From an uncultured Muribaculaceae bacterium (GTDB taxonomy: Bacteria > Bacillota_I > Bacilli_A > RF39 > UBA660), in the NCBI GenBank assembly GCA_964514935.1, contig CAZEVZ010000001.1, forward strand, positions 1 to 46,422: a stretch of 46,422 nt of DNA, in the 5' to 3' direction. The position numbers and the translations under genes were made by a program. A model generated the notes under the pieces. The model had not been told where the DNA came from, searched no databases, and saw only the letters and a list, made by a program, of their open reading frames with translations. This document shows positions 20,408 to 21,549 of the stretch, piece after piece (position 1 is the first letter of the stretch; each line of letters starts with the position of its first letter).

Positions 20408-20436
20408 TTGACAAAATAAGAAAAATTTGCTATAAT
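20408..20436 (+). promoter_or_regulatory. Perfect consensus sigma-A promoter driving the large non-coding RNA
   Basis: TTGACA (20408-20413), 17-nt spacer, TATAAT (20431-20436). A second TTGACA lies at 20397-20402. Confidence 0.75.
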
Positions 20437-20443
20437 TAAGAGC

Positions 20444-21010
20444 GATTGATGGCACATTATTCTAGTCAATTGATTCGTTAGGAAGACGGGGATAAAAGAC
20501 CGTTAAAGAGCATATCTGTGAAACCGCTTGTGTTTGCTTTAGATGCCCAATCTAGGGTGAATGCTGGCGATGAGAATAGTGGATAGAACATAATGGCATA
20601 TGTTTAATTCCATTGTTCGTGGAGACCTAACTTTGTGATATTTTTATTACGAACTAGGATTAAACCTGCTAGGTGGCGAAAGTTACCTACAGTGTAGCTT
20701 GTCTTGAGTGAAGGCTTTGGGATTGACAATAGGTAATAAGTTATTTGGCCAAATAATTTTGTTACTTTGTCATGAAATTACCTTTGCAAAAGAGTACTAT
20801 TAACGATGCGTTGGTGAGGAAATCTCCTAGAGTGCGTTATGATATAGGATTGCAGTGGGAACTAAGTGGCAATCAAGTCGTATGATGTGGAAACACCGTA
20901 CTGTCTTCTTTAAAGGGGAACCGCAACACTGGTAACGGTATGTAGAAGATAGGGAAAACCTACTTGACCTAAGTCCCAAAGTTAATTATATCGATTAGCC
21001 ATTAGTTTTT
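20444..21010 (+). ncRNA. Large structured non-coding RNA (~570 nt), OLE-like by size and context
   Basis: It has no ORF. It is clearly GC-enriched relative to its flanks. It contains many local helices:
- GAAA-capped hairpins at 20671-20688 and 20887-20896
- TTATTTGGCCAAATAA at 20741-20756, enclosed by GGTAAT/ATTACC (20732-20737 / 20777-20782)
- TCTTCT/AGAAGA (20904-20909 / 20944-20949)

There is no terminator before the downstream 4-TM gene. Confidence 0.55.
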
Positions 21011-21024
21011 TTATTGGAGGAAGT

Positions 21025-21549
21025 ATGAAGAAGAGTAATAATCGCTGGATAATTATCGTGACTTTGTTAGCATTTGGATTATCGATACTGATGTCTTTGT
21101 TTGCCAGTATAGTTCTCAAAAATGTTACGTTGATTATCTCGATAGTCGTTACTTTTCTTTTTATTTTATTAGGAATAGTTTTCGATATTATCGGGGTGGC
21201 AGCAACAAGCGGTGATGAAGTTGCTTTTCATTCGATGAGTGCTAGACGTGTTCGCGGAGGAAAAGTTGGGGTAAGATTAATACGAAACGCCTCAAAAGTA
21301 TCGAGTATCTGTTGTGATGTCGTCGGTGATATATGTGGCATCATTTCCGGTAGTGCAGGAGTTACGATTGTTGCCTTACTAGTAAAGATGACAACCCTAA
21401 ATGAAGTGGGGATATCATTACTAGTTATGGCCTTGATTTCTTCACTAACTATTGGAGGAAAAGCCATCGGTAAAAATATTGCTGTCGGTAAGAGCAATGA
21501 AGTAATAACTATCGTTGCTAAAATACTATCAATTTTTAGTAGAAAATAA
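21025..21549 (+). CDS. Small 4-TM membrane protein, OapA-like by position
   Basis: 174 aa with about four hydrophobic segments and a basic loop (SARRVRGGKVGVRLIRNASK). A DVVGD motif lies inside the third hydrophobic segment. The RBS GGAGG is at the right spacing. The gene is directly downstream of the large RNA. Confidence 0.5.
   Translation: MKKSNNRWIIIVTLLAFGLSILMSLFASIVLKNVTLIISIVVTFLFILLGIVFDIIGVAATSGDEVAFHSMSARRVRGGKVGVRLIRNASKVSSICCDVVGDICGIISGSAGVTIVALLVKMTTLNEVGISLLVMALISSLTIGGKAIGKNIAVGKSNEVITIVAKILSIFSRK

Follow-up and report, generated by a model that had tools for sequence, protein, structure and literature searches.

The locus investigated here is located in a 46,422-nucleotide stretch of DNA, referred to as the window, from an uncultured member of the gut Bacillota, whose genome size is about 1-1.5 Mb and whose assembly comprises 1.04 Mb at 67% completeness. 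A promoter, the OLE RNA, the gene oapA and a terminator form a single 1.2-kb unit, which is placed between gatB and a gene coding for a surface protein. The stretch that was flagged carries an ordinary OLE RNA, a large folded RNA of bacteria known from the literature, followed by the gene of its known membrane partner OapA. Such a pair had already been proposed in a first-pass annotation of the nucleotide sequence, and it is borne out by a match to the full Rfam model with 359.8 bits, the features of OapA and the linkage of the two genes in 20 of 20 related loci. Since this guess was right, our description of the locus, which is known in kind, is a confirmation and no discovery. The features of the unit are:

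20408-20436, + strand: sigma-70 promoter, TTGACA (20408-20413), 17-nt spacer, TATAAT (20431-20436); score 12/12
20433-21017, + strand: OLE RNA gene, extent of the RF01071 match; the folded part is bounded by the terminal helix (20444-21007)
20444-20453, + strand: 5' strand of the terminal (P1-type) helix, pairing with 20998-21007; predicted in the MFE fold
20459-20465, + strand: 5' strand (AUUCUAG) of a P3-type long-range helix, pairing with CUAGAGU (20827-20833) and enclosing domain 1
20485-20504, + strand: hairpin with A-rich loop AUAAAAGA, P4-type dimerisation loop (model 54-73; helix 1, 89.9% paired)
20505-20523, + strand: joining region with conserved k-turn-forming sequence, upstream of the GCCCA-loop hairpin
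20524-20570, + strand: long hairpin with GCCCA loop, P5/P5.1-type (model 93-139)
20574-20618, + strand: hairpin with loop AAUGGCAU, P6/P6.1-type (model 144-190; helices 3 and 4)
20626-20658, + strand: truncated P7-type hairpin (model 198-241, positions 214-224 deleted)
20666-20692, + strand: P8-type hairpin, 8-bp stem (20670-20677/20682-20689) with GAAA cap (20678-20681)
20701-20797, + strand: long P9-type arm with palindromic loop UUGGCCAA (20745-20752); helices 7-11
20816-20826, + strand: small conserved hairpin GAGGAAAUCUC (model 404-414; helix 12, 100% paired)
20839-20996, + strand: 3' multi-helix domain (domain 2; model 436-596; helices 13-18, 91-100% paired)
20880-20901, + strand: P13-type hairpin GUAUG-AU-GUG-GAAA-CAC-CGUAC inside domain 2
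20902-20951, + strand: arm of domain 2
20998-21012, + strand: 3' strand of the terminal helix, 20998-21007 paired, then U7 tract (21006-21012)
21016-21020, + strand: oapA Shine-Dalgarno sequence GGAGG, 4 nt upstream of the ATG; read from the sequence
21025-21549, + strand: oapA, 174-residue membrane protein with four transmembrane helices, a basic loop and a DVVGD motif
21553-21588, + strand: intrinsic-terminator-like hairpin (21553-21578) and T-run, 3' of oapA

The perfect promoter, which had been recognized in the first-pass annotation, is extended by a TG at 20428-20429 upstream of its -10 element, and transcription would be expected to start at about 20441-20444. Promoters with a score of at least 10/12, nearly all of them TG-extended, are found at 37 of 43 OLE loci of relatives, where they end 11-20 nt upstream of the invariant UGG of OLE. 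The stop codon of gatB (20394-20396) abuts the ole promoter with no terminator in between and, as had been described, none precedes the GGAGG and the ATG at 21025, which is located 18 nt past the end of the terminal helix at 21007. The hairpin at 21553-21578 is the sole terminator-like site within 20100-21900, and the next gene carries its own promoter (21610-21638, score 11/12). The U7 tract at 21006-21012, where the Rfam consensus is likewise U-rich, might take part in partial termination or 3'-end formation. In accordance with the initial description of an ORF-free and G+C-enriched stretch, the region between 20437 and 21024 contains only chance minus-strand frames of 41-50 amino acids, and the G+C content of the RNA is raised (0.365-0.42 vs 0.285-0.33 in the flanks); oapA is as G+C-rich as the RNA (0.38-0.44).

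Identity and fold of the OLE RNA

OLE RNA has been catalogued in roughly 2,800 genomes, and its structure was partly solved by cryo-EM for the homologues from Clostridium acetobutylicum and C. botulinum. In the window, the Rfam OLE model (RF01071) matches positions 20433-21017 of the plus strand with 359.8 bits at a gathering score of 50 (E = 3.1e-102). This match spans model positions 1-616 and hence the full model without truncation, and a covariance-model search of the whole 1.04-Mb assembly returned it as the sole copy. In the Rfam scan of the region, a check that had been proposed at the outset, no family besides OLE (E = 3e-102) attains its gathering score. The lack of a model match and of helix conservation, both of which had been named as grounds to abandon the assignment, are contradicted by the match to RF01071 and by the pairing kept in relatives. 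The window contains one further Rfam match, a T-box leader at 44897-45087.

The fold of the RNA is well preserved, with 136 of the 147 base pairs projected from RF01071 being standard pairs in the window copy. Folding of the single sequence yields a z-score of -4.88, and none of 100 shuffled sequences folds as well. In related loci, OLE was located by cmscan and search coordinates. Among 43 relatives, 87.7% of the pair cells are paired, compared to 38-46% after sliding of the partners, and compensatory changes, with both sides altered, are found in 112 of 145 pairs. Alignment A2 contains about 130 invariant columns. The terminal helix, which is missing from the Rfam consensus structure, is paired in 84.9% of cells with 7 of 10 pairs being compensatory in the 43 sequences, and the corresponding values were obtained for helix 2 of the P5/P5.1-type hairpin (91.6%, 14 of 20 pairs) and helix 6 of the P8-type hairpin (94.9%, 9 of 11 pairs). 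The P3-type helix, labelled as such by deduction from the text of PMC12265935, is paired in 98% of cells, and its support by covariation is weak (1 compensatory pair) because its bases are almost invariant. The dimer-contact loops AUAAAAGA, GCCCA, AAUGGCAU and UUGGCCAA each occupy their respective model positions. In studied OLE RNAs, the A-rich P4 loop constitutes a dimer contact and the symmetrical P9 loop a kissing-loop dimer contact (PMC12265935); the AAUGGCAU loop, whose bases are invariant in alignment A2, is complementary to the GCCCA loop. The elements listed in the first-pass annotation are all found in this fold with coordinates that are exact or off by a base or two: a GAAA hairpin assigned to 20671-20688 extends from 20670 to 20689 with 8 base pairs, a second one at 20887-20896 reads GUG-GAAA-CAC, and the long-range pairing between UCUUCU (20904-20909) and AGAAGA (20944-20949) is part of a helix of the OLE model.

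A comparison with OLE from Halalkalibacterium (Bacillus) halodurans places the RNA in the same family over the full model. With the latter and its clostridial counterparts, it shares the conserved loops (the A-rich P4, GCCCA, AAUGGCAU and the GGCC palindrome of P9), a 3' domain with a GNRA-capped P13 and the location of oapA directly downstream. It differs from them in a truncated P7, a GAAA instead of a GUGA loop and a 2-nt bulge in P13, and in the absence of the small hairpin that follows GAGGAAAUCUC in the model (positions 424-435). Differences also concern the context, as the two-gene unit of the window has its own promoter and terminator, whereas in H. halodurans the genes are embedded in a long polycistronic operon (PMC12265935). 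P7 is about 30 nt long in the window compared to about 75 nt in most family members, and its distal block GCCUAUACG...CUGAYGGAC, found in most relatives, is gone from the window and from three related loci (L002, L004 and L006) and kept in a fourth (L005, alignment A2). The bulge in P13 measures 2 nt (AU) in the window and in several close relatives, as opposed to 1 nt in the model and most members. OLE variants in the reduced-genome gut clades TANB77 and RF39 were reported previously (Fernando & Breaker 2024, mSphere, PMC11332333). Like 'variant 1' of this survey, the window copy stems from an uncultured bacterium of the gut whose genome measures about 1-1.5 Mb, contains a shortened P7 and is not accompanied by OapC, and its 359.8 bits fall inside the respective 310-390 band, a comparison that is approximate because another covariance model underlies these bands. 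It departs from variant 1 in P8 and P9, which are near consensus length, and in the end of P13, which is often missing there and kept here. In 'variant 2', P7 and P8 are wholly absent (PMC11332333), whereas the window keeps both (20626-20658 and 20666-20692).

Given that OLE and oapA share one promoter without a terminator dividing them, and that the 3' helix and its U7 tract are placed 9-18 nt upstream of the ribosome-binding site of oapA, the 570 nt might instead be mainly a structured 5' leader that regulates oapA in cis, in the manner of a riboswitch or attenuator, without giving rise to a stable trans-acting RNA. We consider this very unlikely, since the family was experimentally found to be an abundant RNA bound to OapA in a membrane particle (PMC12265935), since no alternative hairpin resembling an expression platform covers the Shine-Dalgarno sequence, and since 565 nt of conserved, covarying structure far exceed the needs of any known leader.

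OapA and the composition of the particle

The 174-residue ORF is OapA and displays every feature of this protein that can be assessed computationally. The membrane protein with about four transmembrane segments and a DVVGD motif that had initially been described is recovered, with four long hydrophobic helices and the motif located at residues 98-102. In its AF2 model (pLDDT 84.5), long helices encompass residues 4-32, 36-62, 89-122 and 127-155, and the basic loop contributes seven lysine or arginine residues within positions 60-95; OapA proteins are predicted to cross the membrane with four helices and carry conserved basic residues clustered on one face (PMC12265935). A search with the window protein identified 7111 homologues, and among 22 diverse members D98 and D102 of the DVVGD motif as well as D54 are invariant. 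The dominant-negative mutant PM1 carries changes of 'two strictly conserved aspartate residues' at unspecified positions (PMC7936274), which presumably correspond to D98 and D102.

Sequence profiles did not assign the window protein, which does not reach E <= 1 with the Pfam CNNM family (PF01595), shows no match in Pfam and NCBIfam at E <= 0.01 and none in a sequence-profile search of the PDB even at E <= 10. It was therefore identified by its linkage to OLE, its conserved residues and its predicted fold. Within the 22 homologues, 19 weakly match PF01595 (best E = 1.8e-6). The CNNM scores of OapA, 20.8-24.8 bits, stay below the Pfam cut-off of 28.4 bits. In a Foldseek search with the predicted structure, PDB matches 1-6 are transmembrane domains of CNNM/CorB/CorC proteins (probability 0.95-1.0, TM-score <=0.60), with MtCorB (7M1T, 7M1U) and CorC (7CFF, 7CFG) as top structures. 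The window protein shares with known OapA the four transmembrane helices, the basic loop, two invariant aspartates and the CNNM-like fold. It is distantly related to the CNNM Mg2+ transporters MpfA, CorB and CorC by a similar predicted fold of the transmembrane domain and weak profile similarity, and differs from them by the absence of CBS or CorC/HlyC domains and by four instead of three transmembrane helices (PMC11332333).

Compared to the ribonucleoprotein of the H. halodurans type, which consists of OLE, OapA, OapB and OapC, the genus of the window is devoid of a gene for OapC/YbxF. This member of the L7Ae family (PF01248) was detected in none of 13 genus genomes, four of which are at least 92% complete, in a search that matched four of seven more distant class members and B. 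subtilis as control. For OapB and OapC, the accessions WP_053432310.1 and WP_010896311.1 are listed in PMC11332333. A scan of the genus, in which the genome of the window is 67% complete, for KOW domains (PF00467), which may miss OapB (YbzG), found frames the size of L24 (about 106-110 residues) and NusG (about 180-191 residues) and no third, OapB-like one. OapB depends on a precisely placed 1-nt bulge in P13 (PMC7936274), and in the window this hairpin combines a GNRA loop (GAAA) with a 2-nt bulge. The protein bS21 is encoded. Gut bacteria of this reduced-genome lineage probably have a minimal particle, consisting of OLE and OapA and perhaps bS21, without OapC and probably also without OapB.

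Taken together, we are highly confident that the region constitutes a single transcription unit, from which both core components of the OLE ribonucleoprotein are made, and we count the published work on OLE and OapA in favour of this reading (PMC12265935, PMC11332333, PMC9723947, PMC7936274). Transcription would start at about 20441-20444 from the sigma-70 promoter (20408-20436), the first ~565 nt of the transcript would fold into OLE RNA (20444-21007), and elongation would continue without a terminator through oapA (21025-21549) to stop at the hairpin at 21553-21578. By analogy to Halalkalibacterium halodurans, OapA, a four-helix relative of CNNM-type Mg2+ transporters, would bind OLE and tether the RNA to the membrane, and OLE would dimerise via the A-rich P4 loop, the complementary P5.1/P6.1 loops and the palindromic P9 loop. 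The particle may, as in the same organism, help the cell through stresses, among them an excess of Mg2+, cold, short-chain alcohols and a poor carbon source. Our analysis establishes the families of the RNA and the protein, the conservation of their structure, the linkage of their genes and the arrangement of promoter and terminator; how strongly the RNA is expressed, how it would be processed, anchored at the membrane and dimerised, and which physiological role it may play are deduced from the literature.

Distribution and loss of the unit in relatives

Both genes occur together in relatives, with an OapA homologue directly 3' of the OLE match in 20 of 20 related loci, the same order of ole and oapA in 30 loci of the family, and co-presence or co-absence of the two in all 14 genomes of the genus. 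Hosts of OLE are typically anaerobic or extremophilic Bacillota. Within the order, OLE is present in 77 of 121 sampled genomes, and the nearest records are uncultured gut and rumen MAGs labelled as Bacilli, Tenericutes, Clostridia or Clostridiales. Neither gene is contained in five of these 14 genomes, of which two reach a completeness of 95%. The loss of the whole unit in some sister species is clean, as the empty sites show no OLE remnant at E <= 0.1 and yield a single kind of blastn match, to the promoter of the gene that follows. Since these species manage without the unit, ole-oapA is dispensable in the genus. Where OLE is missing, MpfA tends to take over. As a substitute in the OLE-less sister species it finds no support, since in the 14 genus genomes OapA itself is the only CNNM match and no true MpfA was found, which runs contrary to this published trend.

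The absence of both genes from these five genomes, together with the truncated P7, the 2-nt bulge in P13 and the missing hairpin at model positions 424-435, could be taken to mean that the window contains a decaying, non-functional remnant on its way to being lost. This appears even less probable than a regulatory leader, as 136 of 147 pairs are intact, the promoter is perfect, all invariant blocks and the four dimer-contact loops are kept, and the oapA ORF is intact with each invariant residue in place. Moreover, the form with a truncated P7 is common to several species, whose OapA proteins are 64-83% identical, and it carries compensatory changes, which indicates purifying selection; P7 and P8 do not contribute to the dimer interface, and natural variants can do without them (PMC12265935). 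Finally, a new class of large RNA that resembles OLE only in its layout, the alternative offered in the first-pass annotation, is excluded by the full-length model match (E = 3e-102) with conserved sequence blocks throughout, the features of OapA and the linkage of OLE and OapA, and is the least credible of all readings.

We have also considered the downstream 523-residue membrane protein (21670-23241) as third partner of the OLE ribonucleoprotein and rejected it. Its gene adjoins ole-oapA only in the genus of the window, occurs directly after gatB in OLE-less genomes and is found in genome G127 on a different contig than ole-oapA.

In itself, the flagged element matters little, being one more case of OLE in a type of host from which variants were already reported. 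It is of modest value as a clean and compact example that is driven by a strong promoter of its own, does without the accessory OapC and has an empty site as counterpart in close relatives, and it could help in searches for the smallest working OLE-OapA system or in a natural comparison of presence and absence. A 380-nt 'mini-OLE' occurs in two other genera of the family, at positions 1569-1946 of locus L133 and 1563-1943 of locus L134. It is devoid of P5-P8 and has retained P1-P4, domain 2 in full and a shortened P9, whose palindromic loop is new. With P5-P8, the dimer contacts of P5.1/P6.1 have been lost as well as the k-turn protein site. With 134-139 bits, it scores below 235 bits, the lowest band of the published survey, and it may be undescribed. 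It is possible, although rather doubtful, that the OLE particle of this family forms a natural deletion series not described as such, comprising the minimal OLE and OapA in genomes that lack OapC, MpfA and any detectable OapB, sister species with a clean loss and likewise no CNNM/MpfA substitute, and mini-OLE. If functional, the latter defines the minimal core of OLE.

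Identity and fold of the OLE RNA

A covariance-model scan of the whole window, the check proposed in the first-pass annotation, identifies OLE RNA (Rfam RF01071) at 20433-21017 on the plus strand, with a score of 359.8 bits (E = 3.1e-102, gathering score 50) over model positions 1-616. This full-model match establishes the RNA as OLE and supports the initial interpretation of the region as an ole-oapA pair. Apart from OLE, only a T-box leader (RF00230, 44897-45087, plus strand) reaches its gathering score in the window, with 95.0 bits barely over the required 93.

The features initially recognized by eye are all found in the sequence. 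The presumed ORF-free stretch (20437-21024) contains only chance minus-strand ORFs of 41-50 residues, its G+C content is raised (0.365-0.42 compared to 0.285-0.33 in the flanks), GAAA hairpins are located at 20670-20689 and 20887-20896, and the long-range pair is formed by UCUUCU (20904-20909) and AGAAGA (20944-20949). The fold of the single sequence has a z-score of -4.88, and 136 of 147 pairs are standard when the RF01071 consensus structure is projected onto the window. In an alignment of the window RNA to 42 OLE sequences, taken from its own genus and family and from more remote Bacillota, the helices are conserved, with 87.7% of the pair cells being standard, compared to 38-46% in a control where the 3' partners were slid by 1-3 columns. 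Both-sided changes are found in 112 of 145 pairs, and on each of five measures the observed value was matched by none of 500 shuffles. Two further helices, which are not part of the Rfam consensus structure, fit the published helices P1 and P3.

Helices of the window RNA outside the Rfam consensus structure
20444-20453 with 20998-21007, plus strand: terminal helix, 84.9% paired, 7 of 10 pairs compensatory
20459-20465 with 20827-20833, plus strand: nearly invariant helix, 98% paired

The window RNA deviates from the consensus by the deletion of distal P7 (model 198-241), a loss common to several species of the genus, by the absence of a small hairpin (model 424-435) and by a P13 with a GAAA loop and a bulge of 2 nt rather than 1 nt. 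The loops of P4, P5.1, P6.1 and P9 keep the sequences that make up the four dimer contacts resolved by cryo-EM (PMC12265935). With its score, the window RNA lies inside the 310-390-bit band of 'variant 1' OLE (Fernando & Breaker, PMC11332333), a comparison that is approximate since their model is not that of Rfam. In most family members, P7 is long and its distal part contains a conserved motif, GCCUAUACG...CUGAYGGAC (alignment A2 of OLE RNAs, columns 215-270; e.g. loci L101, L105 and L108), which is mostly gone from the genus of the window. Its conservation suggests that the motif makes a specific contact, either tertiary or with a protein.

OapA and the layout of the unit

Pfam and NCBIfam searches with the 174-residue ORF gave no match, and a large protein collection contains 7111 homologues. 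In all 20 loci picked across the range of 40-75% identity, the OLE match ends just 5' of the homologue start, and the same order is found in 30 further loci from the family of the host. The protein is OapA. Its AlphaFold model (pLDDT 84.5) contains four long helices, in line with the roughly four transmembrane segments noted before, and two short helices within a loop carrying seven Lys/Arg; predicted helices and basic loop match the published description of OapA (PMC12265935). The six best fold matches in the PDB are CNNM-type transmembrane domains, namely MtCorB (7M1T, 7M1U) and CorC (7CFF, 7CFG), with 7M1U being a reported top match of H. halodurans OapA (PMC11332333), and weak Pfam CNNM matches are found in 19 of 22 homologues. 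An alignment of 22 diverse members contains 18 invariant columns including D54, D98, G101 and D102, among them both aspartates of the DVVGD motif highlighted in the first-pass annotation. The PM1 allele of OapA mutates 'two strictly conserved aspartate residues' (PMC7936274), a published description that D98 and D102 would fit.

The predicted TTGACA-17-TATAAT promoter is present at 20408-20436 (score 12/12), contains an extended -10 TG and is directly adjoined by the gatB stop codon (20394-20396). The terminal helix begins 8 nt past the -10 hexamer, which makes the predicted transcript start and the 5' edge of the fold nearly coincide. As noted initially, no terminator precedes the ribosome binding site (GGAGG, 21016-21020) and the start codon (ATG, 21025); the sole terminator-like site of the region (21553-21578) is located 3' of the ORF. 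Promoter, OLE, oapA and terminator form a 1.2-kb unit flanked by gatCAB and a gene encoding a 523-residue membrane protein, which is served by a separate promoter (21610-21638). OLE loci commonly have a strong TG-extended promoter just 5' of the RNA, which scores at least 10/12 in 37 of 43 loci and ends 11-20 nt ahead of the invariant UGG. A weaker promoter-like site in the window (20397-20426, TTGACA-18-AAAAAT, 10/12) begins one base past the gatB stop codon, 11 nt 5' of the consensus promoter.

Distribution and reduced forms of OLE

The assembly of the window (1.04 Mb, 67% complete) contains one OLE copy; related complete genomes measure 0.8-1.6 Mb, and the public records closest to it are MAGs from gut and rumen that carry the labels Bacilli, Tenericutes or Clostridia. 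Of 121 genomes sampled from the order, 77 contain OLE. Across the 14 genomes of the genus, OLE and oapA are either both present or both absent, with two contig-break exceptions, one with OLE and oapA on separate contigs (genome G121) and one with oapA and no OLE match (G124). Both are missing in two 95%-complete genomes. Three OLE-less members have a spacer of about 155 nt after gatB, containing a terminator and then the promoter of the 523-residue protein gene.

OLE-less sites matching window 20397-21600
L129:3340-3540, genome G084
L130:3470-3590, genome G028
L131, genome G128

No OLE remnant was found in the spacer of these three members, and the ole-oapA unit thus behaves as a discrete, dispensable module. 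Together with its promoter, it is a clean presence/absence polymorphism inside one genus.

Two other genera of the family contain a mini-OLE measuring only 378-381 nt (134-139 bits).

Mini-OLE loci
L133:1569-1946 (genome G064, contig C5:12168-12545)
L134:1563-1943 (genome G085, contig C2:57162-57542)

In this form, about 12 nt stand in place of P5 to P8 and the k-turn region (model positions 74-277), and a short P9 is capped by a new palindromic loop, CUGAUCAG. The 3' domain (domain 2) is intact and followed by oapA. Since its score is below 235 bits, the lowest band of the published variant survey (PMC11332333), the mini-OLE may be undescribed. OLE RNAs measuring 480-516 nt (206-243 bits) are found in about 18 of the 121 order genomes. 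One was inspected, L135:1545-2032 (genome G113); it lacks P7 and P8 and has a shortened P9, like published 'variant 2', and its oapA starts about 400 nt past the RNA instead of directly after it.

Proposed particle and candidate partners

With the identity of RNA and protein, their structure, linkage and unit layout established, the window contains a known RNA-protein pair in a type of host where it has already been reported, with some novelty in the comparative side observations only. In studies of H. halodurans and of two Clostridium RNAs, OapA binds OLE and localizes it to the membrane, OLE dimerizes, and the particle helps cells grow when stressed by Mg2+, cold, alcohol or carbon source (PMC12265935, PMC11332333). 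By analogy, the OapA of the window would bind its OLE and hold it at the membrane, the RNA would dimerize and the particle would support growth under stress. More speculatively, how much RNA is made relative to oapA mRNA might be set by the U7 tract (21006-21012) that directly follows the terminal helix. OLE acting purely in cis as a leader is unlikely in light of the documented biology of the family and of how much structure is conserved. A decaying remnant is unlikely as well, with pairs, loops, promoter and ORF all intact and compensatory changes found among species sharing the same OLE form. A new RNA class, the alternative offered initially, is excluded by the RF01071 match.

We infer a two-component version of the particle in this lineage. 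Genes of the L7Ae/YbxF family (OapC) were found in none of 13 genus genomes; such genes were found in the controls and in more remote members of the class. A KOW scan of the genus detected only L24- and NusG-sized frames, with a profile that may miss OapB. Both searches agree with published findings for gut clades of reduced genome size (TANB77, RF39), where OLE RNAs are shortened and OapB and OapC mostly missing (PMC11332333), the agreement being weak for OapB. Another reported partner, bS21, is encoded. Searches for CNNM/MpfA-family proteins in the 14 genus genomes, including OLE-less ones, gave only sub-threshold matches to OapA itself, which does not support MpfA as replacement of OLE in OLE-less species and makes these a small exception to the published anticorrelation, where MpfA is present if OLE is missing.

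The 523-residue neighbour was rejected as OLE partner, as it is retained in OLE-less genomes and unlinked in one OLE-bearing genome. This single-pass protein with Cys/Thr-rich repeats (21670-23241) and a 456-residue acidic protein encoded at 23244-24614 match nothing in Pfam or NCBIfam. The 523-residue protein gene is found in 13 of 14 genus genomes and evolves fast (40-68% identity); in three relatives, a stop codon breaks its matches.
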